From the NCBI GenBank assembly GCA_965242525.1, contig OZ251459.1, positions 4,064,001-4,128,000 of the forward strand: a stretch of DNA of 64,000 nt, in the 5' to 3' direction. Numbering within the stretch: position 1 is the first letter of the stretch; every line of letters starts with the position of its first letter. This document shows positions 1 through 20,293 of this stretch, one piece after another. Under the pieces are notes generated by a model that saw nothing but the letters and a program-made list of their open reading frames with translations, did no database searches and was not told where the DNA came from. The DNA comes from an uncultured Candidatus Binatia bacterium. GTDB lineage: Bacteria; Desulfobacterota; Binatia; UBA9968; JAJDTQ01. The translations under genes were made by a program, and so were the position numbers.

Positions 1-917
1 GCTGCTTCTTCCCCTTCGTTGTGCTGGGGCCAGGAAGACGGCTCCGCGAACAGCGGCTCCGCGAACGGGTCGTCCGGCATGGCCCTGCGCAAGAGATCCG
101 GCAAGCCCGGATACAGGGCGGGCGCCTCGGCGAAACGCCGCCATACCGACGCCCACGCCCCCTCGCGTCTGCCCAGGCGCTCCGCCGCGACGGTCTCGCC
201 GTCCTTCTCCGGGTCGAACCCCAGGTCCGCGTTGCAGCGGGACGCAAAAGCGTTCCAGCGCTCGGCGGCCCACCCGGTCCGTACCGCCGCGGGGTCGCTC
301 AGCCAGACCAGCACGTCCCTCACGGGATCGTCGGAGAAGAGCCGGTCGAAGTCCTCCGCTTCCAGGCGCCTGCCCCGCAACGCCGTCACCGGGGTCGCCG
401 CAAGCTCGGTCAAGGCCCGCAGCATGGACTGCCGGGTGGCCGCGTCGCGCGCGACGTCCAGGTCCAGGCCGCTGTCCCGGGAGGTCAGGAACGCCTCCAC
501 CGTCCAGTCCCTGCCGTTCCTCTGGGTCCAGCAGACGCCGCGGTACTGGAGCTCCACCAGGGGTTTCAGGTGGTCCGGGCAGGTCCCGGCGGCGCCGATC
601 TCCTGGCGGCCCGCGCCGGCCAGATAGACGATGGGCGTCGTCCCGGGGGGAAACCCGGGAGGCTCCAGCGCCCGGTCGATGACGCACCGCAGCCAGATCG
701 CCGGCCCGGTGCGCTCCTCGGGACGGTACTCCCCGAGGACCAGGAGCTGCGGCAACAGGGGCCGGAGTTGCGGGACGATGGGCCGCCACCGCGAATCGGG
801 GTCCGTCCAAAGCACCGCGGCCGGCCTCTCCGCGTCGCCGGGGTTGGAAGCGGAGGCGGCTTCGAGGAAGGCGGCCAGGACCTCGATGACGGTGGCGGAA
901 GGCGGCGGTGTGTTCAT
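1..917 (-). CDS. pglZ: BREX phosphatase PglZ (type B-like), N-terminal part; runs off the left edge
   Basis: Absent from the ORF track (no stop in window). Manual translation from ATG at 917 gives MNTPPPSATVIEVLAAFLEAAS...AVLWTDPDSRWRPIV...GEYRPEERTGPAIWLRC...LVELQYRGVCWTQRNGRDWTVEAFL, typical of the PglZ-B N-terminus. ATGA overlap with the upstream stop; last visible gene of the brx operon. Confidence 0.85.
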   Translation of the reverse strand, partial: MNTPPPSATVIEVLAAFLEAASASNPGDAERPAAVLWTDPDSRWRPIVPQLRPLLPQLLVLGEYRPEERTGPAIWLRCVIDRALEPPGFPPGTTPIVYLAGAGRQEIGAAGTCPDHLKPLVELQYRGVCWTQRNGRDWTVEAFLTSRDSGLDLDVARDAATRQSMLRALTELAATPVTALRGRRLEAEDFDRLFSDDPVRDVLVWLSDPAAVRTGWAAERWNAFASRCNADLGFDPEKDGETVAAERLGRREGAWASVWRRFAEAPALYPGLPDLLRRAMPDDPFAEPLFAEPSSWPQHNEGEEA

Positions 918-1738
918 TGCTCCGGACCGGCGGCGCCCGGCTCCAGGTGGAACGTCACCCGCACGAATCGGTTGCGTTCGTCGTTGACCAGTGCCGGTTC
1001 GGTTCCGTTGAAGCGCCTCATGGCGTGGCGCATGGTCAGCCAGCCCCGCCCGCGCCGCTCCATGAGTCCGCGCACGACCATGGCGTTCGCCATCATTTCG
1101 TTGCGGGAACGCGGAGCTCCGCCCATCCGCGCCTGCTCGATCGTCATGTGGTTGGGCAACGCGCCGGGGCTCGTCACCGCGATGCGGTCGTCGAACACTT
1201 CCAGCAGGATCTGGGATCCGGTGATGGCGTAGTCCCTGTGGATGACCGCGTTGACCAGCGCCTCTCGCAGCGCGCCTTCCGGCAGCCGCGGAACGTCCTG
1301 GCGGTAGAGGCCTCGATAGACCTCCCGCCGGCCCAGGCTGCGAAACCACCCCATCGCACGGTTCACCTGTTCTTCCAGGCGCCCCTTTCCTTCCCCCGCA
1401 CTCAGTACGTCGGCCGCCTGGTCGGCGCCGCCGTACGCGGCGCATTGCACGAACAGGCTCAGGGTGTGCGGATACGCCTGCGGGTCCCGCCCGAACACCA
1501 TCAGTCCGTACAATGTAGGGCGAAGCACGCCGTCCAGTTCATCGACGATGCTGGCGTTGCGCAAGTCGTCCTCCCGCGCCGGCTGCGGCGTCCGGTCGGT
1601 ATCCAGCCCCTGCGCCCGCATGAAGGTGCGCACGGCGCCGAAGTCGATGTCATCCACGGTGGCGTACGGCACGACCTGTCTTTCGTTGAGGACGAGGTCA
1701 TGCAGCAGTACTTGAGATTTCGGAAGAAACGAAGGCAT
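914..1738 (-). CDS. HATPase_c_4 (RecG-C-like) ATP-binding protein lacking the N-terminal AlbA_2 domain; possibly truncated
   Basis: EALVNAVIHRDY...SPGALPN...RN...MERRGRG motifs; paralogue of the C-terminal two-thirds of 2114..3406. Start placed at ATG 1738 (ORF is open from 1861). Confidence 0.7.
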   Translation of the reverse strand: MPSFLPKSQVLLHDLVLNERQVVPYATVDDIDFGAVRTFMRAQGLDTDRTPQPAREDDLRNASIVDELDGVLRPTLYGLMVFGRDPQAYPHTLSLFVQCAAYGGADQAADVLSAGEGKGRLEEQVNRAMGWFRSLGRREVYRGLYRQDVPRLPEGALREALVNAVIHRDYAITGSQILLEVFDDRIAVTSPGALPNHMTIEQARMGGAPRSRNEMMANAMVVRGLMERRGRGWLTMRHAMRRFNGTEPALVNDERNRFVRVTFHLEPGAAGPEQ

Positions 1739-1784
1739 TGCTTCTGAATGAGCGATGGCTCGATCCGTAATCACTTCGGCCGTT

Positions 1785-2117
1785 CTACGCCGGTCCAGGC
1801 TCCGGATTACGGGAGCGATTGCGGTCCTTCCTGAGATCATCGATGTTGACGACACGACCATACTCGTCGACGAGTGTGGCCGTGCGGGGTTTCCTCATCT
1901 CGTACAGCGCCTTGCCTTGGCCATTGAAATAGCTTTGGCAGACGGGTTCATCTCGAAAGAAGTGGAGTATTGCTTCAGGACCTTCTTCGGAACGGAGGGT
2001 CAATGAACCAGCCTCTGCGCCATGAGTATCCCACAGGATCAAACGGTAATGATCCGCCGTCTTCTCCACTTCGAGTCTGCCCCAGGGCTGCTTCAGGTCA
2101 TAGTAGGAAGTGCTCAT
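1785..2117 (-). CDS. Hypothetical protein (110 aa)
   Basis: ATGA-coupled to the upstream stop (2114-2117), protein-like composition, lower GC; no recognisable motif. Confidence 0.6.
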   Translation of the reverse strand: MSTSYYDLKQPWGRLEVEKTADHYRLILWDTHGAEAGSLTLRSEEGPEAILHFFRDEPVCQSYFNGQGKALYEMRKPRTATLVDEYGRVVNIDDLRKDRNRSRNPEPGPA

Positions 2118-3406
2118 GTCCGATGGTCCTCACTTGATGGTTCTTCCGGGTCGGCCGGGGCGTAGATCGTCAACAGGATCTCCGCGTCGCCGACCAGGCG
2201 GTACTCGGGCTCCCGGCCAGACAACCTGATGCTGTTGTCCAGGATCACGGGCACGCCCTCGCCGCGCCTGTCCATCATCGTCTGGCGATGCGTCGTCAAC
2301 CAAGGTATGTTCTTCGGCACGGGGCACTTGGCAAGGAGGCTGGTGACCACCTCGTTTCGGGTCGCCTGCAAATGAGGCAGATCCTGCAAACCCATCGTGT
2401 TCGGAATCGCGCCTGGCGAATAGAGTTCGAGGCGGTCCTGAAAGAGACGCAGTCGGATCTTCGATCCCTGGATGGAGTAGTCGCGGTGGGCCACGGCGTT
2501 GACGACGGCTTCGAATACCGCCCCCATGTCGAACTGCGGTCGATCCATGCGGCCTTGATCCTTGAACGCGGCCACCTTCATGTTCTTTGCCACGAACCGG
2601 CAGGCTCCCTCTACCTGTTCATTCAATGGCCCGGCAACGTCGGCAGCGTCCAGTTGGTAGGGATCATGGGTGCTCGTTCTGATCGTCGTGCCTCGGTAGG
2701 CAACGGCCTGGATGTATGCACTGGACAACCATCTCCTCGGGTCCTCGGAGGCCATGAGTACCCCGGCAACGGTTGGTCTGAGCGATCCGTTCTCGTCCAT
2801 CCGGGCCAAATGGAGCTTGGCCAACACGTCGTCCCGCTCATCCCCCGTGTGTGTGGTCTGAAATCGACTCCAGATTTCGCGAGACAGATCGTCCAGGGTT
2901 GCATCGGGAACGATTTGCTCATCGAAGCGGATGATGCGAACCTGGCTCCGCTGCTGGAACAACCGCGCGAGGTATTCGGGTGACATCGCCCGTTTTCCGC
3001 TGCCGACCCGATGCATATAGCCGCCCGGGGATCGATGCACGAACAGGCTGCGAGGCACGTCGATCTTGATGACTGCCGCCTCCTCGCCGGTGATCGTCGG
3101 CAAAAACAGACGCTCGATGACGGGCGTAATGGTTGGTTCGATGGAGTCTTGGCAAACATCCCGTACATGACGCTCTGCCGATTCGAGACGATCCAGAGGA
3201 ATCCCGATGATCTCACGCGTCTTGTCTTCCACGCCCAGTACGAAGACGCCTCCATGGCTGTTGGCAAACGCAGCGAGCTCATCGGCAAGAGAATCACGGT
3301 GAGGTCCGGTAACCCGTTCCCCGGCGAAGCGCGCCTCCTTGTATTCCAGGAACGTGTCCTCGCCCAACCGAATCTTGTCCAGCAGCTCCTTTCTGTTGTC
3401 AAACAT
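2114..3406 (-). CDS. AlbA_2 (Schlafen-like) + HATPase_c_4 protein
   Basis: N-terminal GEDTFLEYKE...LAAFANSHGGVFVLGVED (AlbA_2); C-terminal EAVVNAVAHRDY...SPGAIPN...DRRGEG. ATG at 3406 overlaps the end of the upstream gene. Confidence 0.85.
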   Translation of the reverse strand: MFDNRKELLDKIRLGEDTFLEYKEARFAGERVTGPHRDSLADELAAFANSHGGVFVLGVEDKTREIIGIPLDRLESAERHVRDVCQDSIEPTITPVIERLFLPTITGEEAAVIKIDVPRSLFVHRSPGGYMHRVGSGKRAMSPEYLARLFQQRSQVRIIRFDEQIVPDATLDDLSREIWSRFQTTHTGDERDDVLAKLHLARMDENGSLRPTVAGVLMASEDPRRWLSSAYIQAVAYRGTTIRTSTHDPYQLDAADVAGPLNEQVEGACRFVAKNMKVAAFKDQGRMDRPQFDMGAVFEAVVNAVAHRDYSIQGSKIRLRLFQDRLELYSPGAIPNTMGLQDLPHLQATRNEVVTSLLAKCPVPKNIPWLTTHRQTMMDRRGEGVPVILDNSIRLSGREPEYRLVGDAEILLTIYAPADPEEPSSEDHRT

Positions 3407-6230
3407 GAGGCGGCTCCGGCCCCAGACGCCGATAGCGGCGTCTGAACGCTTCGCGTCCACCCTCCATGATTCGGCAGACTTCCTCTCGCATCGCTTCCTC
3501 CTGCAGGGAACCTGACTGCGCGACGACGCACTGACCTCCCCGAAAGTCAAGGGCATACAGCATCTCCGCATCCCCGTTCACGACGATGTTGGGGTTGTGG
3601 GTCACCACGATGATCTGTCGCCTGAGCTTGTTTTCCCGAATCTGCCGCACGACCAGATCATAGATCAGGTAGTTGTCCAGGTCGTCTTCCGGCTGATCCA
3701 GTACCAGCGGCTCCTCGCCATGGGCGAGCAGGAATGCCAGCATTGCCGCCGCCCGCTGTCCCGCGGACGCCTGGACAATGGGATGGAAATCCGTTCCGTC
3801 GCCCCGGCGGCTATACTCCACCAGCAACCCGTCTTCGGGGAACCATGTCTGCACCTTGTCGAAGACCTCGGGGCTCTTCTTGTATTTGGCTTCGAGATGG
3901 TTGTTGAAATGTCCACCGAAGCCGCCCTTGCCCGTGCCAGCGGCATGGATGCGGTCCTTGATCTGTCTGAGGCGGTCTTCCATTTCCAAGCCTCGGTGGG
4001 TCGGATCCTCCGGCAAGTCTTTGAGGATCTCTGCGACACAGCCCTTGACTGCACGCCCCTCCTCCATGACGAGGATGTCACCCTCGAAGTGATCGAGAGT
4101 CTCCAGTGTCTCACGCAGGGAAAGTTCGACAGATCGAGGGTCATCGCCATATTTCAAGCTTCGCATATGCACGAATCCGTTGTGCGCCAATGTTTCTCTC
4201 AAGAATCGGTCGCGGCCATGACTCAACGCGCGGCGAGCTTTCGTCACGTTCTCGAGCAGGGATCGAGATTGCTCGACCAACCTGTCGCGCTCTTCTTCCA
4301 CCGCTTTCAGGCTGGCCAATTCACTATCGAGCCGTTGCCTGTCCTGCACCAAGTGGCCGTATTCGTTCGGGTCGGTGACGCCTTCCTTGCGCAACGTCTC
4401 GATCAGTGCTTCGTACTCGTTCGCCGCGTCTTCGAATGCAGCTTGCCAAGCGCTCTTGGTCAACTTTTCGCGTTGCGTCTCGATACATCCGCGCAGGCGC
4501 TCTGCGATGTTACACAAGTCTTGGGCAGCACTGCGCAGGTTGGTGGCCAGTGTAGCCATGATTGCGGTAATTTGCCGATCTTCTTCCAGGTCCTCATTGA
4601 ATAGTCCGTCGGGCAGATCTTCGGGTTGCAGCGTCGCTGCCGCGTGCTCAATGCGACTGGCCGCCGCTTCTGCCGTATCGAACTGCCGGTCTGCTTCCGC
4701 GTGCTGACGATTGCGACTCCGGTAAGCCGTCAGGATTGCGGTATGCCCTGCTTCCTCGAAGCGCTTCAACTTGCGTTCTACGTCCCGCTGGTCGGTGGCG
4801 AGGTTGTTCCGGCGGCTCAACTTGCCTTCGAGTTCCCGGATACGCGCTTTCGCCGCATAAAATGCGTTGCGGGCTTCTTCCATCTCTCTTTGCAGCGTGG
4901 TCATTCCTGCCGCTTCATCAATGACCTGTAGCAACGCCCGCTGGTTTTCGCCTGCCAGCGCGGCGATCTGTCCCTGGCTGAACATACGAACCGGAAAGCG
5001 CTCGGGCGTGACCGTCTGGGCGAGCGACGGCTGCCAATCGGCTTTGCCTGTGTCTTCCTCCACTGTCGTGCCGTTGCCGTCCTGTCGCCAATGCAGGCGA
5101 TGCCGGACACCATCACGCACCATGATCCATTCAATGTTCGTCTTCTTTCTCAAACCGCCCTTGCCAGTGCGATCCTTGGGCACCTGCTTGAACCGTTCGA
5201 AGGTCCAGAGAGGTTCACTGTGTTCTTCCAGATGCTTCAATTCATCTTCACGCCTTGCCGCAAGCCTCATTGCATGGATCACGGTCGATTTGCCGGTGCC
5301 GCGTCCGCCCACCAAAGCGTTGAACCACGGGTTGAATCCGAGCTTGGCGGGCTCGCCGCGGCCCATATATTGCGCGTTTGAGATCTCGATGGATTCAATG
5401 AAATGTTCGGGTACTCTGAATGGATCGAGAGGTTTCGGGTCGTCGCTACGCCGAATGGAAAAACCGCTTCCGTCCAGAAGGGCCAAGCGCAACCCTTCAA
5501 GGGATGGTTTTTCCATTTTCACCCACGTATAGTGGGAGCCGGGGAGACGATCTCCGGTTTCATCTACCGGGCGATGAGAATCCGATCCTAGAACCTCCGA
5601 CCATGTGAGCTTGCGTTGTCGATATAAATCTGGTTTTTCCTTGCTTACATCAACCACTTCCATGGCGAACAAGTCGTCGAGGTCGAGTAATGGCGCGAGC
5701 GTGTTTCCGGGCAGTTCCCAAGCGCCAGACGGCCCGTCAACGTGTGCAAGTATGGGGATTCCGCCGGCATCCGTGATGGCTTTCACAACGTCGATGGCTG
5801 CCGCATCCGCCGCGATGTCGCTTTTCCCCGCGTCACCTTGATATCGGGTCGTTCCAAGCAGCCGGTCTATATCGGTTGATCTCTTGTCACCGTCAAGTAT
5901 CGCAAGGATGTGGATACTGCCGTTTGCGGTGATCTCTACACCCGGGAACAGGTGCAGCGCTCGAAAATCCGGAGGAGGCTCCTGCTCCAAATCATGAAGC
6001 GCATCCTTCAGATCATTGATCCACCCTCCCGAGTTGTGATCGGTGACCGCCACACAATCCACGCCGGCTCGCATGAATCCGAGTAGCCATTCCCGCGGGG
6101 TTGTCTTCTTGAGTGCGGTTTGGTTGGATCCCTTCCCATAATCCATTGATGCTGGCGTATGTGTGTGGAAGTCGAACTTCCACCAACGCGCACCGGGGTA
6201 GGGCCAACCAGTGGATGTATTGTTGGTCAT
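3399..6230 (-). CDS. PHP phosphoesterase fused to a coiled-coil ABC/SMC-type ATPase (TrlF/Ppl-like)
   Basis: PHP motifs DFHTHT, VTDHN, PGVEI, LAHVD, GSDSH; Walker A GGRGTGKST; long coiled coil; signature ASAGQR; Walker B LVLDQPEDDLD; H-loop VVTHN. Confidence 0.88.
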   Translation of the reverse strand: MTNNTSTGWPYPGARWWKFDFHTHTPASMDYGKGSNQTALKKTTPREWLLGFMRAGVDCVAVTDHNSGGWINDLKDALHDLEQEPPPDFRALHLFPGVEITANGSIHILAILDGDKRSTDIDRLLGTTRYQGDAGKSDIAADAAAIDVVKAITDAGGIPILAHVDGPSGAWELPGNTLAPLLDLDDLFAMEVVDVSKEKPDLYRQRKLTWSEVLGSDSHRPVDETGDRLPGSHYTWVKMEKPSLEGLRLALLDGSGFSIRRSDDPKPLDPFRVPEHFIESIEISNAQYMGRGEPAKLGFNPWFNALVGGRGTGKSTVIHAMRLAARREDELKHLEEHSEPLWTFERFKQVPKDRTGKGGLRKKTNIEWIMVRDGVRHRLHWRQDGNGTTVEEDTGKADWQPSLAQTVTPERFPVRMFSQGQIAALAGENQRALLQVIDEAAGMTTLQREMEEARNAFYAAKARIRELEGKLSRRNNLATDQRDVERKLKRFEEAGHTAILTAYRSRNRQHAEADRQFDTAEAAASRIEHAAATLQPEDLPDGLFNEDLEEDRQITAIMATLATNLRSAAQDLCNIAERLRGCIETQREKLTKSAWQAAFEDAANEYEALIETLRKEGVTDPNEYGHLVQDRQRLDSELASLKAVEEERDRLVEQSRSLLENVTKARRALSHGRDRFLRETLAHNGFVHMRSLKYGDDPRSVELSLRETLETLDHFEGDILVMEEGRAVKGCVAEILKDLPEDPTHRGLEMEDRLRQIKDRIHAAGTGKGGFGGHFNNHLEAKYKKSPEVFDKVQTWFPEDGLLVEYSRRGDGTDFHPIVQASAGQRAAAMLAFLLAHGEEPLVLDQPEDDLDNYLIYDLVVRQIRENKLRRQIIVVTHNPNIVVNGDAEMLYALDFRGGQCVVAQSGSLQEEAMREEVCRIMEGGREAFRRRYRRLGPEPPHV

Positions 6231-9200
6231 CTTTGTTCTGCCTTTGCTCGTATCCGAGCTTCATGCTTGTCCGCAGTGGCGAAGTGCACGTCGTTCATCC
6301 GCTCCCCGGTGAACTCGCCGTCGCGCCAGAACCAGGGGAAGCGTTCCTGGTCGCGGAAGGGCTCCCTGCCGCGGTCCTTGTTCCAGTGGACGTTTGGTTT
6401 GGCGCGGAGGAGGCCGGCGTCCTTCTTGCCGCCGGGGAGGTCGGCGGCCATGAAGGGGCGGAGGTGGAGGCGCACGCCGTCGTTCACGTCCGGCTCCCAG
6501 CCCACGGGTTGCGCTTCGACGGGTTTCCAGCGGATGAAGAGGTCGTGGGGCGGCTCGCCTTCGAGGATGGCGGCGAGGCGCTTTTGCAGCTCCAGGGCCG
6601 CGGCCAGGCGGTCTTCCGCCCCGCCTTCGCCGCGCTTCACCCCGTCCTGCTGGCGGACGATCCAGTCGCCGAGGTAGCTGTAGGTGAGGGCTTCGAGGCA
6701 TCGGCGGCCGTTGCCGCCGCCCTCCACCAGCTTGTGGTAGTTGACCAGCGCATGGAAGCCGTCGCGCTTGCGGCCGTCCCAGACGTGCCAGACGAAGGGA
6801 CGGTGGTGGAACAGCTTGCAGTGCTGCTCGAAGAAGCGGTTGCGGAGCCAGTCGTCGAGGCTCGGGCTGCCAACCTCGGCGAGCAAACGGCCGAGCAGGC
6901 CGTCGCTCCATGCGTCGCCGAAGGCGGCGGCCAGAAGCTGCCGGACTCGCTCCGCGGCGGACGGTTCGCCCCGTACCGGCGGGATGCAGACGATGCCGTC
7001 TTCGTCCGCGAAGGCGCACAAGGTCTCGCAACGCCGGACCCACTCGCGCTGCTCGTCGGCCAGCTCCATGTCGGCATCCTGTTCGGCGGGCCAGCGGTAG
7101 CCTGACAGGCGGGCGACGGCGACTTGGAGCACGGTGGGATCGGTGCGGAGCGGGCCGTGGGCGGTGCGTTTCTCCGCCTCGTCCCAGACCACCGAGCCGC
7201 AGGGGTGGCCGTGGAAGATCCATTGGGTGGGATCGTCGGAGTAGGGGCGGGGGAGGCTGTAGGGGTATTTCTCCCGCGCTACTTTGGTCCAGCGGTCGAG
7301 GTCGAAGGGGACCTTGACCAGCGTGGCGTTGGTGACCTTGAGTGCTTGATCTATGCTTCTCACCGATTCGTGGTACTCGGATGAAGAACAGAAACACCAG
7401 ATGGCAGGAAGATACGAATCTTCCTTCGGCGATACCACGGCAACGTTCTTATCGAAGATTTCCCTCGTAAACAACGTACAGGGGAGAGTCTGCATTTGAC
7501 TGACAGCGACACCAACCTTTCCCCATGCCATGCTTCCGGCAGGGACTGCCAGTCCCTTTCGTCCCCGTTCCGCTAGTACACCGAGACCCTTTTGCCAGTA
7601 AACGATCTGCTCGCAGCCGTGCCAGGCATGTGTGTTTTCAACGGTGGTTTGGAGGAATTGCCAATCATCGGTGAAGTTCACGATTTCCCAGAACTGCCTG
7701 AAGAAACCGGGGGAATCCTTGCTTCCGAACCCGTGAACCCCGTCAGCATATTTTGACAAAAGCGCGACATCTTCCGCTTTATCCAGCGCCACCCGCGCAT
7801 CCGGATTCTCCAACTGTCGGGCTTGCGCAACGCCAATGACCTCCATTTCCCGCAACCGTGCGGCCTTCTCACCCACGGTGCGGGCTTCGGAAACGTCCAG
7901 GCCGTACATCGTCCCGGCTGCCGACGCATCGTCGAACAACTCGCCCGGATCGCTGGCGGGGTGCCTGTGGCTCAGGGTGAGCAGGATCGCCTTGACGACT
8001 TCTCCGCTGATGGTCTCGAAGGCGCCCGGTCCCAACCGCGCCAACAGATGCCACGTCTCCGTCTTCAGCAGTTTTCCCCGCAGCTTCCGGTAGCCGGTGA
8101 GGAACAGCCAGTTTTGCGGCAGCACGAGGCTGGCGGTTCCTCCTTCCTCGCACAGCGCCAGGCAGCGCTCCAGGAACACGGTGGCCAGGTCGTTCTTTGC
8201 GTCGGGGTAGCGCCGCTGGCAGAAGGCGCGCAACGTCTTGTCCTGCTTGCCCCGGGCCAGGTACGGCACGTTGGTGGCCACTAGGTGGTAACGTCCGGCC
8301 AGCAGTTCCGCGGCGCGCGCCATCCCCTGCGCGGCCACCGCGTGCTCCGTCTGCTCGTCGCTCATTCGCTCCCGTTCGAGCGCGGCTGCGAACAGCGCCC
8401 GCACCGACTCGAAGTCGCTCTGGTAGAGGTCTGCCTCCAGCGCGTGCGGGTCGATGAGCGAACCGCGCTCCGGCGCCTGCCCGAACAGGTCGTGGAGCGC
8501 GTCCAGGCTGTTGCGGAGCGGCGCGGAGAGCAGCGTGTCTTCCACGTCGAACAGGTCGCGCGCCGGGGGCATCCCACCGGCAGCCGCGGCCAACTCCGCC
8601 AGCGCGGCCCATTGCTCCTTCGTCGCGTTGGGCGCCAACCCCGAACAGGCGACGTTGAGTTCCGGCAGGGGCCGATACCCTTCCGCACCCGGATACGTCC
8701 AGGCAGCGAGCGCAAGGGCGAACGCCGCGAGCTCCACGCATCGCGGGTCCAGTTCCAGGCCGTGCAGGTTGTCCTGCAGGACCGCGTCCACGGCATCGCG
8801 GGCGGCAAGGCCCTCCCGCGCCATGCGCATGGGGACCAGCATCAGGAACGCGGCGACCAGGAAGTGCCCCGAACCGCAGCAGGGGTCGAGGATCTTCAAC
8901 TCCCCCAAATGTTCCGGCCAGCCGCGGAATTCGCCGGCGGCGGGGCGCCACCCGGGCAACCGCGAAACGGTCGCGTCCTGTACGAAGCGCAGGGAGTCGA
9001 GGGTTGCGCCGGGAATCGCCACCTTCCGGCGCAACCCGGTTTCGCCGCCGGCTCCTTCCGGGTCGGCGCCGTCCAGCCGCCGCGCCGCCCACCAGGCCCC
9101 CAGAGTGTTGTCGAGCAGGAAGCTCACCATGTAGGGTTCGGTGAAGAGCTGGGTGACCGCGGGCAGTTCTCCGGCCCCGATCTTGGCCTCGGAACGGTTC

Positions 9201-9799
9201 ACCTCCGCCTTCTTCCGGGACTGCCAGAACTGATAGACCCAGCCGAGGGAATCGGTCGCCGTGAACGTTTCGGCCGGCAGACCTTCCACCAGCCCTTCCA
9301 GCTTCAGCCGGTGCTCCCGCGCGAACCGGACCTCGAACACCGGAAGGTCGGGCCGGAACACCTGGGGCAGCATCCGGTGGGCGAAGCGCGCCGCCAGCGC
9401 CCACTTGTCCGCGCCTTCGTCCTTGGCCAGTTCCTCGCATTCGTCCAGGGTGACGGCGACCTCCGTCTCCGGTTCGATGAGCAGCCGGTTCTCGGCGAGG
9501 AACCGGGCGAACAACATGCCGTGCCAATGCTCGTAGGCGCACTCCTGCGCCAGGCCTTCGATTGCCCGGCGTTGGCCGCCGGAGCGTGCGTCGAGCGGGT
9601 CGCCGAGCTGCAGGGCGTGGGCGCGCAGCCGCCGGCGCAGCGCCCGCTGCCCCTCGTCCATGTGCCCGTAGGGATCGCGCTCGTGCACCGCCAGCGCTTC
9701 CAGCGCCGCACGGGCGCCGGCCTCCGCACCGTCGCGTGCGTCCGCGACGGTGCGTTCGAGGTGGCGCCGCTGGCTGGATGTCAACGTCCGCATACTCAT
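6227..9799 (-). CDS. pglX: BREX adenine methyltransferase PglX, copy 2 (1190 aa)
   Basis: TQLFTEPYMV, motif I LDPCCGSGHF, motif IV TNVPYL, C-terminal FFEQHCKLFHHRPFVWHVWDG; position in the brx operon. Confidence 0.88.
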   Translation of the reverse strand: MSMRTLTSSQRRHLERTVADARDGAEAGARAALEALAVHERDPYGHMDEGQRALRRRLRAHALQLGDPLDARSGGQRRAIEGLAQECAYEHWHGMLFARFLAENRLLIEPETEVAVTLDECEELAKDEGADKWALAARFAHRMLPQVFRPDLPVFEVRFAREHRLKLEGLVEGLPAETFTATDSLGWVYQFWQSRKKAEVNRSEAKIGAGELPAVTQLFTEPYMVSFLLDNTLGAWWAARRLDGADPEGAGGETGLRRKVAIPGATLDSLRFVQDATVSRLPGWRPAAGEFRGWPEHLGELKILDPCCGSGHFLVAAFLMLVPMRMAREGLAARDAVDAVLQDNLHGLELDPRCVELAAFALALAAWTYPGAEGYRPLPELNVACSGLAPNATKEQWAALAELAAAAGGMPPARDLFDVEDTLLSAPLRNSLDALHDLFGQAPERGSLIDPHALEADLYQSDFESVRALFAAALERERMSDEQTEHAVAAQGMARAAELLAGRYHLVATNVPYLARGKQDKTLRAFCQRRYPDAKNDLATVFLERCLALCEEGGTASLVLPQNWLFLTGYRKLRGKLLKTETWHLLARLGPGAFETISGEVVKAILLTLSHRHPASDPGELFDDASAAGTMYGLDVSEARTVGEKAARLREMEVIGVAQARQLENPDARVALDKAEDVALLSKYADGVHGFGSKDSPGFFRQFWEIVNFTDDWQFLQTTVENTHAWHGCEQIVYWQKGLGVLAERGRKGLAVPAGSMAWGKVGVAVSQMQTLPCTLFTREIFDKNVAVVSPKEDSYLPAIWCFCSSSEYHESVRSIDQALKVTNATLVKVPFDLDRWTKVAREKYPYSLPRPYSDDPTQWIFHGHPCGSVVWDEAEKRTAHGPLRTDPTVLQVAVARLSGYRWPAEQDADMELADEQREWVRRCETLCAFADEDGIVCIPPVRGEPSAAERVRQLLAAAFGDAWSDGLLGRLLAEVGSPSLDDWLRNRFFEQHCKLFHHRPFVWHVWDGRKRDGFHALVNYHKLVEGGGNGRRCLEALTYSYLGDWIVRQQDGVKRGEGGAEDRLAAALELQKRLAAILEGEPPHDLFIRWKPVEAQPVGWEPDVNDGVRLHLRPFMAADLPGGKKDAGLLRAKPNVHWNKDRGREPFRDQERFPWFWRDGEFTGERMNDVHFATADKHEARIRAKAEQR
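9125..9754. repeat. ~630-bp direct repeat, copy in the pglX2 5' region
   Basis: Aligns without gaps to 12786..13415 (offset 3661); about 18 mismatches by manual count. Confidence 0.92.
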
Positions 9800-10059
9800 C
9801 GCATCAATACGCCTGATCCGGCATAACCGGAACCAAAGGTTGGTCTCGGTCCCGGGATAGCGTGGCCGGTAGATGAAGCATGTTTCGTCACCTTGCTCAA
9901 AGGTTTCATGGACAGGAAGGCTAATACACGCCCCATCGACGGCCGCCCTTCATCCTGAATTCTCCTTCGATGGAGGCTGAACGTTGCTTCCACTTCTTCA
10001 CCTCGGCCATGCGGCCAATCGTCAGCCGCACGCGTCGCCAGCAACTTCAGGACTTTCAT
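9796..10059 (-). CDS. Small hypothetical ORF (87 aa) between the two pglX genes
   Basis: ATG at 10059 overlaps the pglX1 stop (ATGA) and its own stop overlaps the pglX2 ATG (ATGA); no motif recognised. Confidence 0.4.
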   Translation of the reverse strand: MKVLKLLATRAADDWPHGRGEEVEATFSLHRRRIQDEGRPSMGRVLAFLSMKPLSKVTKHASSTGHAIPGPRPTFGSGYAGSGVLMR

Positions 10060-13000
10060 GCTTTTTCCCTCGAAGCGCTGTCGTACTCGAAGGGCGCATG
10101 ACGGGAGATCTCCGCCATCGTCCGCCGATGCTGTTTTTCTGCGTTCCGAAAATGCCCGTCGTTGGTCCGGGCTCCGGTGAATACGTCGCCTTCCCAAAAC
10201 CAGGGGAAGCAGGTCTGGTTCCGTAAGGGCTCTCTGCCTCGATCCTTCTTCCAGTGAAGGTTGGGCCTGGAGCGAAGGATGCCCGTTCCTTTCCTGCCGC
10301 CAGGGATGTCGTCGGCCATGAAGGGGCGGATGTTGAGGCGCACGCCGTCGTCGATGTCCGGCGCCCAGCCGATGGGTTGCCGATCGATCGGTTTCCAGCG
10401 AATGAAGATGTCGAAGGGCGGTTCGCCCTCCAGGATGGCGACAAGGCGTTTCTGCAACTCCACCGCTGCCGACAAACGGTCTTCCGCGCCGTCCCCGTTT
10501 CGTTTCAAGGCGTCCTGCTGGCGGGAAATCCAGTCACCGAGATAGCTGTACGTCAGCGATTCCAGGAGCTGGCGGCCACGGCCACCGCCGGCGGCCAGTT
10601 TGTGGTAGTTGATGAAGGCGTGGAAGCCGTCGCCTCTCCGTCCGTCCCAGACGTGCCAGATGAAGGGACGATGGAGAAACAGCTTGCAATGCTCGTCGAA
10701 GAACCGATCCCGAAGCCAGTCGTCGAGGCTGGAACTGCCGGCATCGACGAGCAGGTTGGAAAGTACGCCGTCGTGCCAGTCCGCGCCCCAGCAGGCCGCC
10801 AGCAGCCTGAGCAGACGTTCTTCGGCCGGCCGTTCGCCCAAGACGGAAGGGAGGCAGACGATGCCGTCCTTGTCCTCGAAGTCGTGGAGTGTCCTCGTGT
10901 CCTCGACCCGGGCGCGGGCGGCCTCCGACAATTCCATGTCGGGGTCACCTTCCGCCGGCCACCGGTAGCCGAGAAGTCGCGCCATGGCCACCTGCAACGG
11001 CTCCGTCGCATCTCCCGGATGGCCGTGGAACGCCCATTGTGTCGGGTCCGTCGTATGGACGCTGAACAGATCGGCCGTCGTCCGCCCGCCTGCCTTCCGT
11101 TCCCACTTCCCGGCGGAGTAGGGGACCTTGGCGAGCGCGCCATTGGTCACGGAGAGCTTCTTGTTCAGCTTTCTCACGTCTTCGCCATATTTCGGGGAGC
11201 TGCAATACGTCCATATTGCCGGAACGTCCTTTTCGTCGCAGGGGATGAGGACAGCGACGTTGCAATCGAATTTGGAGCCGAAATACAACGACGCCGGGAG
11301 ATCGCCCATCCGATTGACGGCGATGCCGCGCTTTCCCCACGCCGCGTGTCCCGATTGCCATCCGCCGAGTCTTCCCTCCAGCCTGAGGGCTGCCGCATGA
11401 TTGGCGTATCTTCCCTGCTCGTCTCCCCAGAAGATGACGTGGCTGCAACCGCTCATCTCCGTCGTGGCGTCGGGAGCGAATTGGAAGAACTCCCAACCCC
11501 GTCCGATGGCCGGAAGCTCCCAGAAGTTGAACACGAACTGCGCGTTGTCGCTGGTCGCAAGCCCCTGGTGGCTGTACGCCCTGGTTTCCAGAAGCTCGCA
11601 TGATTCCGCTGGTGCGTATCCGATGATCGAATCCGGGTTGGCGATCTGGCCGGAACGAGTGAGCGGTACGGAAGGCGCGTTGCGCAGTGCGCTTTCCTTG
11701 TCCGACAGGCCCTTGCATTCGGAAACGTCAAGCCATGAAAGATCGTCGTTTCCCTTTCCCGGTGAACGCGCGATTGCCAGGAGGCAGGTTTTCACTACTT
11801 CACCGGAGATGGTCTCGAAGGCCCCGGCTCCCAACGTCGCCAGGAACCGCCACCGATGCCGTTCCAGAAGCTGTTTGCGAAGTTGCTTGTACCGGTTGAG
11901 GAACAGCCAGTTCCATGGCAGTACCAGGAATACGTCACCGGCCGGTTCACAGAATTCCATGAGGCGTTCAACGAAGACCGTGGCCAAATCGTGTTTCGAT
12001 ACGGGATAATGGTCTTCGCAGAAGCGTCGAAGGCTTTCCGTATGTTTTTCCCTCCCGAGATAGGGTACGTTGGTGACTACCAGATGATAGCGGGAAGTCA
12101 ACAAATCGGCAGCCTCGGCCAGCCCCCGTGCTGCGATGGCCGTCTCTTCGTACTCCTCATCGCCGCCATGTTCCCGCAGCGCCGTTCCCAGGAGTTGCTC
12201 CAGGTCGGCAAAATCGGCCCTCAGCAGATCACCGGAGAGGCCGCCCGGATCGATGAGACTGCCGAGAACGGAGGCTTCGCGGAACATGTCGTACAGCCTG
12301 CCCATCCCGCCTTCCCGGCGAGGGTCGCCTTCCGCCAGCGCCGTCCACTGCCCGCGTTTCCCGCTCACCGGCTGCCCGCACCATGCGAGCCGGATCCGCG
12401 GCAGGGGTCGATAGCCCCCGGCGCCAGGATAGCGCCACGCTTCCAGCGCGAGTGCGAAGGCGGCTATCGCCACGCAGCGCCGGTCCAACTCCAATCCGTT
12501 CAGGTTGTCTCGCAATACTGCATCCACGGCTTCGCCGGCGCCTGTGCCTTCCAGCGCCATGCGCATGGGCACGAGCATCAGGAATGCGGCGACGAGGAAG
12601 TGTCCCGAGCCGCAACATGGGTCCAGCATCCTGAACTTCGCGAGATCGTCAGGCCAGCTTTCAAAACCGCCAGTCTCGGGCGAACCCTGCTCCGTCTCGC
12701 GCAGATACGTCAACTCGACCGGACGCCGCTTGTCCGGATGTCGGTTAACCCACCACGCTCCCAGCGAGTTATGCAGCAGGAACTGCACCATGTAGGGCTC
12801 GGTGAAGAGCTGGGTGACCGCGGGCAGCTCTCCGGCCCCGATCTTGGCTTCGGAACGGTTCACCTCCGCCTTCTTCCGGGACTGCCAGAACTGATAGACC
12901 CAACCGAGGGAATCCGTCGCCGTGAACGTTTCGGCCGGCAGACCTTCCACCAGCCCTTCGAGCTTCAGCCGGTGCTCCCGCGCGAACCGGACCTCGAACA

Positions 13001-13454
13001 CCGGAAGGTCGGGCCGGAACACCTGGGGCAGCATCCGGTGGGCGAAGCGCGCGGCCAGCGCCCACTTGTCCGCTCCCTCGTCCTTCGCCAGTTCCTCGCA
13101 TTCCTCCAGGGTGACGGCGACCCCCGTCTCCGGTTCGATGAGCAGCCGGTTCTCGGCGAGGAACCGGGCGAACAACATGCCGTGCCAATGCTCGTAGGCG
13201 CACTCCTGCACCAGGCCTTCGATGGCCCGGCGTTGGCCGCCGGAGCGTGCGTCGAGCGGGTCGCCAAGCTGCCGGGCGTGGGCGCGCAGCCGCCGGCGCA
13301 GCGCCCGCTGCCCCTCGTCCATGTGCCCGTAGGGTTCGCGCTCGTGCACCGCCAGCGCTTCCAGCGCTGCACGGGCGCCGGCCTCCGCACCGTCGCGTGC
13401 GTCCGCGACGGTGCGCTCAAGCTGCTTTCGGAGATTCGGTGGCAATGTGTTCAT
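10056..13454 (-). CDS. pglX: BREX adenine methyltransferase PglX, copy 1 (1132 aa)
   Basis: Same architecture as 6227..9799: TQLFTEPYMV, LDPCCGSGHF, TNVPYL, FFDEHCKLFLHRPFIWHVWDG. Confidence 0.88.
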   Translation of the reverse strand: MNTLPPNLRKQLERTVADARDGAEAGARAALEALAVHEREPYGHMDEGQRALRRRLRAHARQLGDPLDARSGGQRRAIEGLVQECAYEHWHGMLFARFLAENRLLIEPETGVAVTLEECEELAKDEGADKWALAARFAHRMLPQVFRPDLPVFEVRFAREHRLKLEGLVEGLPAETFTATDSLGWVYQFWQSRKKAEVNRSEAKIGAGELPAVTQLFTEPYMVQFLLHNSLGAWWVNRHPDKRRPVELTYLRETEQGSPETGGFESWPDDLAKFRMLDPCCGSGHFLVAAFLMLVPMRMALEGTGAGEAVDAVLRDNLNGLELDRRCVAIAAFALALEAWRYPGAGGYRPLPRIRLAWCGQPVSGKRGQWTALAEGDPRREGGMGRLYDMFREASVLGSLIDPGGLSGDLLRADFADLEQLLGTALREHGGDEEYEETAIAARGLAEAADLLTSRYHLVVTNVPYLGREKHTESLRRFCEDHYPVSKHDLATVFVERLMEFCEPAGDVFLVLPWNWLFLNRYKQLRKQLLERHRWRFLATLGAGAFETISGEVVKTCLLAIARSPGKGNDDLSWLDVSECKGLSDKESALRNAPSVPLTRSGQIANPDSIIGYAPAESCELLETRAYSHQGLATSDNAQFVFNFWELPAIGRGWEFFQFAPDATTEMSGCSHVIFWGDEQGRYANHAAALRLEGRLGGWQSGHAAWGKRGIAVNRMGDLPASLYFGSKFDCNVAVLIPCDEKDVPAIWTYCSSPKYGEDVRKLNKKLSVTNGALAKVPYSAGKWERKAGGRTTADLFSVHTTDPTQWAFHGHPGDATEPLQVAMARLLGYRWPAEGDPDMELSEAARARVEDTRTLHDFEDKDGIVCLPSVLGERPAEERLLRLLAACWGADWHDGVLSNLLVDAGSSSLDDWLRDRFFDEHCKLFLHRPFIWHVWDGRRGDGFHAFINYHKLAAGGGRGRQLLESLTYSYLGDWISRQQDALKRNGDGAEDRLSAAVELQKRLVAILEGEPPFDIFIRWKPIDRQPIGWAPDIDDGVRLNIRPFMADDIPGGRKGTGILRSRPNLHWKKDRGREPLRNQTCFPWFWEGDVFTGARTNDGHFRNAEKQHRRTMAEISRHAPFEYDSASREKA
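12786..13415. repeat. ~630-bp direct repeat, copy in the pglX1 5' region
   Basis: Aligns without gaps to 9125..9754. Confidence 0.92.
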
Positions 13455-13463
13455 CGAACCGGC

Positions 13464-13843
13464 TTACTCGAACAACGACCGGGGCAAGCCCGACTGCCGG
13501 ATAACGGACATGGCTCTTCGGGATTCCGTGTGGGTTGTGACACTCCCCACCCAGGCGATGAGGTCGCTTCCCTCCCCTTCCGACCACGCCGTCCTGGTTT
13601 GGCGTTGCAGACGCCCCACCCCGTCATTCCCGCGAAAGCGGGAATCCATCCATTCTTATGAAAACCCCCGTGTTCCCATCCTTCCGACCCAACCCCAGGG
13701 TGCCCTGCATGATGGATTCCCGCTTTCGCGGGAATGACAGGGGATGGGAGTGCGGGAGTGACCGCGTGATCCTTTTCTCTCCCCTTTCCCTCCTACCTTG
13801 CCCACACGAAAGCCGGAAGAGCCAGAATCCGCAGCTTAGCCAA
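13464..13843 (-). pseudogene. hicA: hicA toxin pseudogene whose centre is replaced by a MITE
   Basis: TTG start overlapping the hicB stop encodes MAKLRIL (13843-13823); beyond the MITE, SVIRQSGLPRSLFE* (13508-13464) is a typical HicA C-terminus; the GSH-containing core is missing. Confidence 0.7.
13512..13823. mobile_element. MITE, copy 1 (~312 bp)
   Basis: Terminal inverted repeats GGCTCTTCGGGATTCCGTGTGG / CCACACGAAAGCCGGAAGAGCC; internal GTCATTCCCGCGAAAGCGGGAATCC palindromes; interior similar to the reverse complement of 58593..58990. Confidence 0.8.
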
Positions 13844-14057
13844 CTGCAACCTCGACTTGGGTTACGTACACCTCGTTGTGTAGCCGCCGTTCGATCTCCG
13901 TAGCGGAGGCTTCCTCGAAGAACAGCTCCAACGCCTCCTTCAGGTTGCTGCGCGCTTCGTCCACGGTCCCGCCCTGGCTGGCTATATCCAGCTCGGGGCA
14001 GAGTGACACGTAACCGTCGCCTTCGCGCTCTATGATTGCCGTCAACTGTCTGGTCAT
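13836..14057 (-). CDS. hicB: HicB-family antitoxin (short form)
   Basis: LTAIIEREGDGYVSLCPELDIASQGGTVDEARSNLKEALELF; AGGAGG RBS upstream. Confidence 0.88.
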   Translation of the reverse strand: MTRQLTAIIEREGDGYVSLCPELDIASQGGTVDEARSNLKEALELFFEEASATEIERRLHNEVYVTQVEVAVG

Positions 14058-14103
14058 CGTGCCCTCCTGTTTCGGAATCCGTGCTCCGGCCTTCGACTGC
14101 CGT

Positions 14104-15297
14104 TCACGGGTTTGCTCCCAACTCGCCCATTAGCCACAAGTCGCCGAGCCGGTAATCTTCCAGCCACGAGGCGAGCTTCTCCGGGTCAAGTCTTCGCAGG
14201 ACGGTTCCGGCCCCTGGCCTTTCACAGGCGATGATGGCGTCCGGCTGGTTGGTCAATGCCGAAACCAGGGCATCGGAATGCGTCGTGACCACGAGTTGCG
14301 TTCTTTCGGATGCATCGACGAGCAGGTCGGCGAGCAACGAAATCGCGTCGGGGTGCAACCCGAGCTCGGGCTCCTCGATACACACGAGGGGCGGCGGCGA
14401 TGGAGACAGCAGCGTTGCCAGGATCGCGATGAATCGAATCGTGCCGTCGGACAGCCGGGTTGCCGGTATGGGCGCCCGGAAGCCGGATTCGTGAAGGTAG
14501 AACTGTACCGTGCCGCCGGAGACCTTGGTGGACAGTCGTTCGAAGCGGGGAAAGAACTGCTTCAACATCTGGTTCAGGCGGGTCTCCCCGGCGTGTTCGA
14601 TCTGGTTCAGCACCAGCGCCAGATTACGGCTGTCCGGGAGCAGCCGGTCTTCAGGGAGGTCCGCGGGTTGCGGCTGCCGGAGCGGGACGTAGCGGCCGAA
14701 GGTCCATTCCCGGAAGGTCTGGATACTGCCGAACATCCTGCCCGTCCAGGTGACTTCCGGATACTGATCGGGGTCCTTCCGTTGCGCCAGAACGGACTGA
14801 TCGGGCAACAGGTCCTGGCGCCGAAGCTGCCGCCGGTCCATCGGTCCGCCCTTATGATCCCGAACGCTGATTGCCGGATGGCCCTGCTGGAAGCGGTAAT
14901 AGAAAAGCACGTCCGAAGCGTCCGGTCTGTAGGGGTCCCGTTCGGCCTCTTCGATTGCTTCGTCCAGGATCTCCACACGACTCTGAACCGTAGAGAACCT
15001 CAGCCGATACCGCAATGGCCGGCCGGTCGGCGTGCCGCTTTCGAGCACGGCCTCGATCTCCGCATGTCCCTTTGCATCGCCTCCCTTCCACAGCCACTCG
15101 GCCGGCCCTCCTCCGTCTCGCACCGACGCCGCGAAGTCGTGCGGAGTCGCCGATAGCAGCTCGAACGCCTCGATCAGGTTCGATTTGCCGGATCCGTTCG
15201 GCCCGATCAGTACGTTCAGGTCCCGCAACTCGAAGGCCTCCGAACCCGGGGGGAACGACAGCAACCCGTCGAGACGGATATCCTTGATGGCGATCAT
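14104..15297 (-). CDS. AAA_21/AbiEii-like ABC ATPase
   Basis: MIAIKDIRLDGLLSF start; Walker A IGPNGSGKSN; LSDGT signature; CIEEPELGLHP; VVTTHS; C-terminal LGDLWLMGELG. Confidence 0.88.
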   Translation of the reverse strand: MIAIKDIRLDGLLSFPPGSEAFELRDLNVLIGPNGSGKSNLIEAFELLSATPHDFAASVRDGGGPAEWLWKGGDAKGHAEIEAVLESGTPTGRPLRYRLRFSTVQSRVEILDEAIEEAERDPYRPDASDVLFYYRFQQGHPAISVRDHKGGPMDRRQLRRQDLLPDQSVLAQRKDPDQYPEVTWTGRMFGSIQTFREWTFGRYVPLRQPQPADLPEDRLLPDSRNLALVLNQIEHAGETRLNQMLKQFFPRFERLSTKVSGGTVQFYLHESGFRAPIPATRLSDGTIRFIAILATLLSPSPPPLVCIEEPELGLHPDAISLLADLLVDASERTQLVVTTHSDALVSALTNQPDAIIACERPGAGTVLRRLDPEKLASWLEDYRLGDLWLMGELGANP

Positions 15298-18824: not shown

Positions 18825-19384
18825 GCCTCGTACACTCCTCGGGGGTCCCGCAAGGTGATGGGGGTGGCCAGGTAGTTCCACCCGTCCCGCGCGTCCAGCA
18901 GCCGATAGTTGCCGTCCTCGTATTCGCCGGGAAAGAAGACCGCGATGCGGCCCTTGACGTCAGGCTCTATGGCCTGCATCAGTTCCGATACGCGGAGGAA
19001 CCCGTACAGCGAGGCGATGCCGGAGACGGCGACCACCGAGTTGTCGTCCGCCTCCGCCAGCGCTTGCCGTACCCTGTCGGCGACGTGGTTCAGAAGGTCG
19101 TCCTCCAGTTTCAGGTCCAGGTCCTGCGGAGACTCGAAGTAGCTGTCCCGATACTCGACGTCCGCCATCCACCTCGCGAACGTCCCGGTCAGGTCGCAGT
19201 CGATCCAGCCGTGTCCGAGTTCCCGGGTCGCCATTTCGAAGAGGGCCTTGCGCGCTCGCAGCCGCCGCTCGTCGCCCTTGTCATAGACGATGAAGATGGT
19301 GCGCTCCGCGCCGGCGAGGTCCTTCCGCCACGGCAGCGCGATGTGGCGCCGGTAGCGCTCAGCCAGACTGTCGATGCGCCCCAC
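18821..19384 (-). CDS. brxB: BREX protein BrxB (DUF1788-like)
   Basis: 187 aa; C-terminal GRIAVFFPGEYEDGNYRLLDARDGWNYLATPI; directly upstream of brxC. Confidence 0.88.
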   Translation of the reverse strand: MGRIDSLAERYRRHIALPWRKDLAGAERTIFIVYDKGDERRLRARKALFEMATRELGHGWIDCDLTGTFARWMADVEYRDSYFESPQDLDLKLEDDLLNHVADRVRQALAEADDNSVVAVSGIASLYGFLRVSELMQAIEPDVKGRIAVFFPGEYEDGNYRLLDARDGWNYLATPITLRDPRGVYEA

Positions 19385-20207: not shown

Positions 20208-20256
20208 GTCGGAGGGGACCGTAGCAGGTTTTGGAGCCGATGGCAAGGCGTTGATA

Positions 20257-20262: not shown

Positions 20263-20293
20263 CCGGCAAACTGGCCGGTTGAATTTTCGGACT

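Follow-up and report, generated by a model that had tools for sequence, protein, structure and literature searches.

Type-1 bacteriophage exclusion (BREX) systems, as known from E. coli HS, Salmonella and Acinetobacter, have a single PglX built of four parts: an N-terminal domain, a gamma-class N6-adenine methyltransferase (MTase), a target-recognition domain (TRD) plus spacer, and a C-terminal domain. Accessory defence genes lie within their operons. Here we analyse a stretch of 64,000 nucleotides (the window) from an uncultured Candidatus Binatia bacterium (assembly GCA_965242525.1, contig OZ251459.1, positions 4,064,001 to 4,128,000), which carries a type-1 BREX locus on the minus strand at its start. 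The locus has the same four-part PglX and likewise contains accessory defence genes, but it differs from the single-PglX systems in having two complete, co-oriented pglX genes in tandem, which belong to different deep lineages and whose N-terminal domains evolve in concert.

In the accounts given of the pglX shufflons of Lacticaseibacillus rhamnosus, L. paracasei Zhang and Brevibacterium casei, a locus contains more than one pglX-derived sequence, and constant N- and C-termini surround a variable middle that sets specificity (PMC9881135, PMC10164179). Their copies are described as inverted, often partial and located beside a recombinase, with programmed inversion and one gene expressed at a time (PMC9881135). 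The window resembles the shufflons in the first two respects. It differs in that both of its genes are complete and point the same way, neither a recombinase nor an inverted repeat was found in it, and the N-terminus is held constant by gene conversion.

Type I restriction-modification (R-M) systems with several hsdS genes, and the allelic exchange of TRDs in Type III mod and Type IIG genes, also combine one core with alternative specificity modules, whose conserved flanks act as recombination arms. The alternative subunits of the window would coexist rather than switch, and because the TRD sits in the methyltransferase polypeptide, the exchanged unit in BREX is the whole MTase-TRD-spacer module. 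Concerted evolution by gene conversion is known for tandem paralogues such as the bacterial tuf or rRNA genes. The window shares with these genes copies that are closer within a genome than between orthologues, sharp tract boundaries, low synonymous divergence (dS) and conflicting trees; it differs in that conversion is limited to one domain of divergent genes (57% amino-acid identity overall) and has limits that vary by genome. The locus differs from all BREX systems reported in the literature searched, which did not cover the original 2015 BREX survey and yielded no account of full-length pglX genes in a co-oriented tandem, nor of gene conversion acting on BREX; that survey, by Goldfarb and colleagues, is said to mention pglX duplications next to recombinases.

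Two pglX genes with a common 5' cassette

The genes of the locus run in the order brxA, brxB, brxC, a HEC-01A ATPase gene, pglX-B, the relic of a phospholipase D (PLD)-family gene, pglX-A, Ppl, Schlafen-like genes and pglZ, all on the minus strand. The features that bear on the pglX pair are as follows.

6227 to 9799, minus strand: pglX-A (X2 paralogue), the downstream gene, 1190 amino acids, intact; full-length match to PADLOC PDLC02528, 1651 bits
10056 to 13454, minus strand: pglX-B (X1 paralogue), the upstream gene, 1132 amino acids, intact; full-length match to PADLOC PDLC02528, 1459 bits
9125 to 9754, minus strand: homogenised cassette in pglX-A, codons 16-225; N-terminal domain, linker and first MTase motif
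12786 to 13415, minus strand: homogenised cassette in pglX-B, codons 14-223; N-terminal domain, linker and first MTase motif
7189 to 7939, minus strand: TRD of pglX-A, low in G+C, placed by alignment mapping
11009 to 11738, minus strand: TRD of pglX-B, with 36% amino-acid identity to the TRD of pglX-A and 66-71% to the X1 TRDs of three related loci (L001, L007 and L022)
9922 to 10059, minus strand: relic of a PLD-family nuclease gene in the 256-bp gap between pglX-B and pglX-A; tblastn with the genes of L007, L022 and L001, 58% identity, E 2e-9

Both pglX genes are uninterrupted open reading frames (ORFs), and both encode motif I (DPCCGSGHFLV) and motif IV (TNVPYL), which are invariant in an alignment of 13 sequences. 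The view in an earlier note on this DNA, that these are two full-length, intact pglX genes of one BREX locus, is thus confirmed. A phmmer search matches the window's PglX to the solved PglX/BrxX structures 8C45 and 9EWZ (E 2e-45 and 3e-44).

The same note had placed a gap-free repeat of 630 bp at the 5' ends of the two genes and counted 18 mismatches by hand; the count is exact. Positions 9125-9754 and 12786-13415 are 97.14% identical, in direct orientation and both in frame, and blastn widens the match to 9088-9754 and 12749-13415 at 96%, with a spacing of 3661 bp between the copies. The longest perfectly identical run is 92 bp. Outside the cassette the two genes share about 61% nucleotide identity and 57% protein identity; at the nucleotide background (0.615) the probability of at least 612 identical positions in 630 is about 1e-102, and even at 0.80 it is about 1e-37. 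When the two genes are compared, the cassette has a dS of 0.085; for the linker, MTase, TRD and spacer the value is 1.2-1.8, and the far C-terminal domain reaches 0.80.

Both edges of the cassette are sharp. At the 5' side the first 13-15 codons of the two genes differ (proportion of synonymous differences, pS, 0.76), and at the 3' side nucleotide identity drops to about 50% in the windows that follow ...TQLFTEPYMV. The abrupt end after this motif had been noted before and stands; its position, given as the start of the MTase domain, can be refined, as the alignment to 8C45, in which the tract ends at about residue 250 of Salmonella PglX, and a model of the N-terminal domain put this end roughly 25-40 residues inside the MTase domain as structural papers define it. 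In the model (AlphaFold2, pglX-B residues 1-235, from a 42-sequence alignment; predicted local distance difference test score, pLDDT, 84) a helical domain ends at about residue 200; residues 202-213 form a linker of low confidence, and the helix bearing TQLFTEPYMV comes next. Its six best matches in the PDB are all chains of Salmonella PglX or E. coli BrxX (probability 1.00, TM score 0.47-0.56, E 1e-3 to 1e-2) and the rest are noise; sequence search alone aligns to the PglX/BrxX structures only from residue 164. By the alignment and the model, the cassette comprises the PglX/BrxX N-terminal domain, the linker and the first conserved helix and motif of the MTase.

The remainder of the genes is diverged, most of all in the TRDs. 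In pglX-A the TRD has a G+C content of 54-56%, against about 70% in its flanks, and the two TRDs fit the coordinates at which the most diverged, low-GC centre had been seen before. Single substitutions are reported to alter PglX specificity (Went 2024), and TRDs with 36% identity would therefore almost certainly read different motifs.

Two side observations concern the TRDs. P0008, an orthologue of pglX-A, is 97-98% identical to it in the N-terminal domain and MTase and only 59% identical in the TRD, and the TRD of pglX-A looks like the product of a recent cartridge exchange by recombination. The X1 TRDs are 66-71% identical across genomes in which BrxC is only about 70% identical, and the mean for TRDs of the family is 41%; the specificity of the PLD-associated X1 paralogue seems, from these comparisons, unusually stable.

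Ancestry of the pair

In a tree of 38 PglX bodies, A and B split at the root with support of 100. The X1 clade, also with support of 100, contains pglX-B, the X1 proteins of L001, L007 and L022, and P0121, P0122, P0123, P0126 and P0137. The orthologues P0121 and P0122 have the same length as pglX-B (1132 amino acids) and bodies 85-92% identical to it, and the C-terminal tail of pglX-B is native. The orthologues of pglX-A, the closest among its 120 best database relatives, are 85-90% identical to it in all domains; none of these 120 is more than 60% identical to B in the MTase or more than 40% in the TRD.

Related loci were taken as the 80 best tblastn matches to pglX-B, which are not a random sample; none of those listed is closer than 68% identity. 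A second pglX was found in only three of them, L001, L007 and L022, all on chromosomes of gammaproteobacterial metagenome-assembled genomes; several of the 80 loci have short flanks and this count is a lower bound. In all three, a B-like X1 gene is followed on the same strand by a PLD-family gene of 351-357 amino acids and then by an A-like X2 gene. Stops and starts of the three genes overlap or abut in L007, L022 and L001, and in L007 and L001 the start of the PLD gene overlaps the X1 stop. The PLD gene also follows the X1-lineage pglX in L030, which has a single pglX, bringing the number of such loci to four of the 80. Its product has an HxK...GSGN motif and a profile match to the N-terminal region of PDB 7CLG (E 7e-7), and its nearest Atlas clusters are PLDc_2/NgoFVII/BfiI-like; Pfam matches were below cut-off in all four homologues.

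In the window the start codon of this gene overlaps the stop of pglX-B (ATGA). After some nine N-terminal codons (MKVLKLLAT) comes an out-of-frame junction with the gene's final 38 codons (...WGVY, then stop), about 0.93 kb having been deleted. Since both ends of the PLD gene persist between the pglX copies, the window descends from a pglX1-PLD-pglX2 arrangement. Because, in addition, the bodies fall in two deep clades and the same order recurs in other genomes, the pair is inherited, its members belonging to two anciently separated PglX lineages, and did not arise by recent duplication.

In L001 the second pglX (15396-20531) is interrupted: N-domain residues 3-144 are followed by about 1.6 kb without a Pfam match, after which the gene resumes at residue 135, and there is a further frame break at about residue 405. 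A gene with an Abi_C domain lies between the PLD gene and this copy.

Gene conversion of the N-terminal domain

In the three genomes with two intact pglX genes, dS between the N-terminal domains of the same genome is 0.09 (window), 0.69 and 0.80 (the two relatives), compared with 0.91-1.72 between N-domain orthologues and 1.3-3.1 in the rest of the same gene pairs. N-domains from different genomes are 74-83% identical, whereas the two copies of one genome share 96% identity in the window, 85% in L022 and 80% in L007; in none of the three does an N-domain from elsewhere match better than the partner in the same genome. Grouping is instead by paralogue type for the MTase, TRD and spacer, with identities of 56-71% for X1-X1, 52-77% for X2-X2 and 35-58% for X1-X2 pairs.

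The trees disagree in the same way. In the N-domain tree, A and B stand with P0008, an orthologue of A, inside a supported clade where proteins of A type and B type are mixed, and X1 and X2 of L007 are also united. When the N-domain columns are put to an approximately unbiased (AU) test, the X1 clade, as the remaining columns define it, is rejected (delta lnL 114, p = 3.9e-9). Because of this conflict, and because dS in the cassette is 0.085 against more than 1.2 through the middle of the genes, the cassette is a product of intragenomic gene conversion and not of slow evolution, in agreement with the earlier proposal that conversion keeps it uniform.

In the window the conversion covers codons 14-223; L022 has two converted stretches, at about codons 60-135 and 166-300, and L007 has one at about 121-180. 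A search of other genomes for tandem pglX with the same breakpoint had been suggested: tandem genes do occur, in three of the 80 best loci, but the tracts of L007 and L022 have limits of their own. Conversion is recurrent, patchy and confined to the 5' third of the genes, and the latest event in the window is recent. Homology by itself does not account for the places where conversion persists: the far C-terminal domain, whose average conservation is no lower than that of the N-domain (mean pairwise identity 0.67 versus 0.62), has not been homogenised.

The two copies of the cassette have the same G+C content at third codon positions (GC3), 0.876, which lies between the values of brxC and of the gene bodies and, being equal, does not tell in which direction the last conversion ran. 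The converted N-domain has a higher GC3 than the rest of the genes in the window (0.876 versus 0.75-0.82) and in L022 (0.82 versus 0.65; 10001-10700 and 14536-15240); in L007 it is not raised. The raised values may come from GC-biased gene conversion.

PglX domains and the BREX core

Pairwise identities of each PglX domain were compared with those of BrxC over 69 loci (68 and the window) by Mantel tests with Spearman correlation and 999 permutations. The N-terminal domain correlates with BrxC at 0.80 and the far C-terminal domain at 0.76, values that none of the 999 permutations reached. The correlations of the middle are 0.24 for the MTase, 0.18 for the spacer and 0.07 for the TRD, the last being reached by 49 of 999 permutations. 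Against BrxB and the N-terminus of PglZ (39 loci) the ends give 0.76-0.84 and the middle 0.04-0.21; the core proteins correlate among themselves at 0.89-0.93 in these 39 loci. Exchange of the middle can be seen among 241 proteins of the family: of the 585 pairs whose N-domains are at least 90% identical, 69 have MTases that reach at most 65% identity. Several of these pairs come from lineages unrelated to the window, such as P0050 and P0174 (98% in the N-domain, 52% in the MTase) and P0101 and P0133 (96% and 53%). PglX is thus a chimera, with ends that track the core and a free-floating middle. Among the relatives of pglX-A the linker alleles are also reshuffled.

The published PglX/BrxX structures, as far as they are described, assign no function to the N-terminal domain (PMC11341690, PMC11842806). 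The conserved N- and C-terminal domains of BrxX, which is reported to be inactive alone, have been hypothesised to contact BrxZ and BrxC (Drobiazko 2025, PMC11842806); activity is said to require BrxB, BrxC and BrxZ, with both end domains proposed as contact surfaces (PMC11842806, PMC12839542, PMC13326643). A 2026 survey in Nucleic Acids Research likens the N-domain to that of M.EcoKI and suggests an interaction interface (PMC12839542). The cassette had been interpreted before as an N-terminal docking domain. That it corresponds to the PglX N-domain, and that this domain co-varies with BrxB, BrxC and PglZ, is borne out by the present analysis; docking itself is the part that we infer.

Proposed explanation and its alternatives

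On balance we think it probable that two specificity subunits share one BrxB/BrxC/PglZ core through matched N-terminal domains that conversion keeps alike. Each PglX brings its own MTase-TRD-spacer module, so that two different DNA motifs would most likely be read. The N-domains are overwritten repeatedly by intragenomic gene conversion, in the window recently over 630 bp. Both proteins would dock on the one core by N-terminal (and C-terminal) surfaces that they have in common, and one system would methylate and exclude on two motifs at once. Shared docking surfaces are the most likely arrangement, because across the family the ends of PglX vary together with BrxB, BrxC and PglZ, and its middle is freely exchanged.

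Several points weigh against this explanation. The two proteins score 303 and 302 bits against NCBIfam BREX_1_MTaseX, for which the cut-off is 500, and because they fall below this BREX-1 PglX cut-off they are assigned to a divergent PglX subfamily. The comparison with the closest relatives (P0002-P0020, P0121, P0122 and P0013) covered their proteins only. The co-variation of the ends could reflect linkage, with the ends serving as recombination arms beside brxC and pglZ, and not contact. Conversion can proceed without selection wherever homology permits, and the loss of the PLD nuclease in the window could mean that the X1 module is decaying. One PglX can suffice, since the second copy of L001 is interrupted. 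In the two-methyltransferase BREX of L. paracasei Zhang, which has a different architecture, N6-methyladenine (6mA) was reported lost on inactivation of pglX but not of the second methyltransferase gene (PMC10164179).

The last three of these points, together with the low GC3 of the pglX-B body (0.75, against 0.91 in brxC), speak for an alternative in which only one PglX serves BREX, the other being silent, regulatory or decaying, and the shared cassette is a neutral by-product of homology-driven conversion. We regard this as unlikely. Both genes retain intact ORFs and motifs, and long-term dN/dS is 0.13-0.16 among X1 orthologues and 0.19-0.23 among X2 orthologues, indicating purifying selection in both lineages; from these data both enzymes look functional. 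The changes that have accumulated in the cassette since the last conversion are also mostly synonymous (13 synonymous, 5 non-synonymous; dN/dS 0.13). Finally, a by-product of homology would be expected no less in the far C-terminal domain, which is as conserved as the N-domain but has escaped homogenisation.

Less probable still is that pglX-B belongs to a separate, embedded R-M-like module, made up of the X1 methylase, the PLD nuclease and perhaps the HEC-01 ATPase, and has become an orphan methylase in the window through the loss of that nuclease. The PLD gene does follow the X1-lineage pglX in four of the 80 best loci, besides the relic in the window, with an overlap of X1 stop and PLD start; the X1 TRDs are conserved well above the family mean; and HEC-01A is the immediate upstream neighbour, in the window as in L001, L007 and L022. 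However, in L030 the X1-type gene is the sole pglX of a complete BREX locus (brxA, brxB, brxC, pglZ and brxL), and the X1 lineage therefore does serve BREX. Furthermore, the X1 N-domain follows the resident BREX lineage, and PglX-type enzymes are reported to be inactive without BrxB, BrxC and BrxZ (PMC11842806).

The earlier note had also seen in the repeat a built-in switch, by which recombination between the cassettes would excise 3661 bp and change the specificity. The direct 630-bp repeats are in the same frame, and a crossover would indeed yield an intact hybrid gene. It would, however, keep the MTase and TRD of A and remove only the body of B, irreversibly, and hence would amount to the loss of one specificity and not to a toggle. 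The longest perfect run is short (92 bp), and the tandem, an old and conserved arrangement, persists in relatives whose N-domain DNA is 79-83% identical. Nothing that might drive switching was found: the only pglX repeats detected by blastn in the window are direct, with no inverted copy; the 80 best loci contain no extra inverted piece of pglX; Tandem Repeats Finder reports no simple-sequence arrays in 6000-14200; and recombinase, integrase and transposase families are absent among the 43 (16 + 27) window ORFs scanned. One protein, P0013, joins an A-type body to a leader that agrees with the leader of the B-type P0122 at every position (11 of 11) and to an N-domain 95% identical to that of P0122. 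A crossover of this kind would leave such a protein, and P0013 may have arisen naturally by one, between tandem cassettes of a different genome. Comparable leaders are carried by A-type proteins from other lineages (P0004, P0015 and P0026), and P0013 is for this reason only suggestive. The idea of a programmed switch is accordingly not supported, and we give it very little credence.

That the tandem is an assembly artefact joining two strain alleles is very unlikely indeed, because the same order recurs in three independent assemblies (chromosome-level by their records) and the relic of the ancestral PLD gene lies between the copies, and the bodies, 53-57% identical and in different deep clades, are not those of alleles.

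Other features of the locus

Five of the six signature genes of type-1 BREX are seen. The sixth, brxL, is not visible in the window; it would fall past the window's start, downstream of pglZ, and in the related locus L030 it follows pglZ. The remaining genes and repeats are the following.

3 to 917, minus strand: pglZ, N-terminal 305 codons; NCBIfam BREX_PglZ_1_B, 374 bits (cut-off 400), profile positions 1-292 of 675
914 to 1861 and 2114 to 3571, minus strand: two accessory ORFs of Schlafen/AlbA_2 and HATPase_c_4 type (Pfam), between Ppl and pglZ
3399 to 6230, minus strand: Ppl/TrlF-family AAA-like ATPase; NCBIfam TrlF_fam_ATP, 596 bits (cut-off 350); PADLOC Ppl, E 6e-134
13511 to 13823, upstream of pglX-B: repeats resembling repetitive extragenic palindromes (REP) or miniature inverted-repeat transposable elements (MITE), with the palindrome ATTCCCGC-N4-GCGGGAAT; 5 palindrome matches, 0 expected by chance
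13836 to 14057, minus strand: ORF of 73 amino acids, weakly HicB/UPF0150-like; all Pfam matches below cut-off (E 0.01-0.03)
14104 to 15294, minus strand: HEC-01A-type AAA_21 ATPase, between brxC and pglX-B; PADLOC HEC-01A, E 6e-157; Pfam AAA_21, E 2e-40
15381 to 18881 (ORF), minus strand: brxC; NCBIfam BREX_BrxC, 756 bits (cut-off 400) from residue 21; PADLOC BrxC, 1487 bits
18821 to 19384, minus strand: brxB; PADLOC BrxB, E 3e-72; Pfam BrxB, 36.7 bits (cut-off 26.8)
19359 to 20200, minus strand: brxA; PADLOC BrxA, E 2e-95; the ORF reaches 20462

The pglZ fragment, which is cut by the window edge, also matches PglZ of PADLOC (E 9e-112), and its translated start reads MNTPPPS... The true start of brxC is probably near 18824, and that of brxA lies at about 20140-20200, since the domain begins at residue 109 of the ORF. 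HEC-01A was located by tblastn at 15294-14110. L007 and L001 also have its partner HEC-01B (DUF4276), for which tblastn gives no match in the window, and for this reason the HEC-01 pair looks broken in the window; the 73-amino-acid ORF lies at the place that HEC-01B takes in those two loci. MANTIS/Gao_RL (bioRxiv 10.64898/2026.09.23.753747) was considered for the set of methylase, ATPase and PLD gene and rejected: the window has a full BREX core, and the MANTIS nuclease, as the preprint reports it, is a helicase-nuclease fusion.

The Ppl/TrlF ATPase is a candidate single-gene defence system lodged in the locus. For the Schlafen-like ORFs (914-3571), the E values against Pfam are 1e-16 with SLFN_AlbA_2 and 3e-20 and 2e-15 with HATPase_c_4. 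The interval between pglX and pglZ is a cargo hotspot whose content is partly shared among the window (914-6230), L007 (17181-22518) and L022 (17985-23458). Its cargo consists of Ppl and Schlafen-like genes in the window; SIR2, a split HerA and Ppl in L007; a STAND NTPase of 1500 amino acids and a Schlafen-like gene in L022; and a GmrSD type IV enzyme in L030.

Copies related to the REP/MITE-like repeats are found upstream of brxA (20289-20481) and at 58592-58991. About 100 bp of the element stands in the same orientation upstream of pglX-B and of brxA, with 82% identity, and might be a shared promoter or terminator or a mere marker of insertion-prone spots. A scan of the locus for promoters and terminators performed no better than on shuffled sequence. 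A second family, probably another REP family, consists of intergenic repeats of about 44 bp, 97-100% identical and in both orientations, at 24894, 27719, 34523, 46107, 52263, 52574 and 60683. The other 43 kb of the window hold ordinary transport and metabolic genes.

Implications

The locus and its relatives amount to a natural experiment, in which two very different PglX bodies share one core and exactly the N-domain is kept matched, by selection or by conversion. This bears on how PglX is recruited to the BrxB-BrxC-PglZ complex and on why it is inactive alone. More tentatively, and with rather less confidence than in the explanation of the window itself, we suggest a general possibility: BREX cores can host more than one specificity subunit simultaneously, the N- and far C-terminal domains acting as a core-specific adaptor that sets which BrxB/BrxC/PglZ core a given PglX serves, and the MTase-TRD-spacer as a freely exchangeable cartridge. 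A gammaproteobacterial BREX lineage would then have fixed a design with two cartridges, one of them paired at first with a PLD nuclease of its own, and the adaptors would be kept matched to the core by recurrent conversion. Such an organization suggests a design rule for re-targeting or multiplexing BREX. If it is true, the reading of two motifs at once would make it harder for phages to escape by loss of a motif or by a single acquired methylation.

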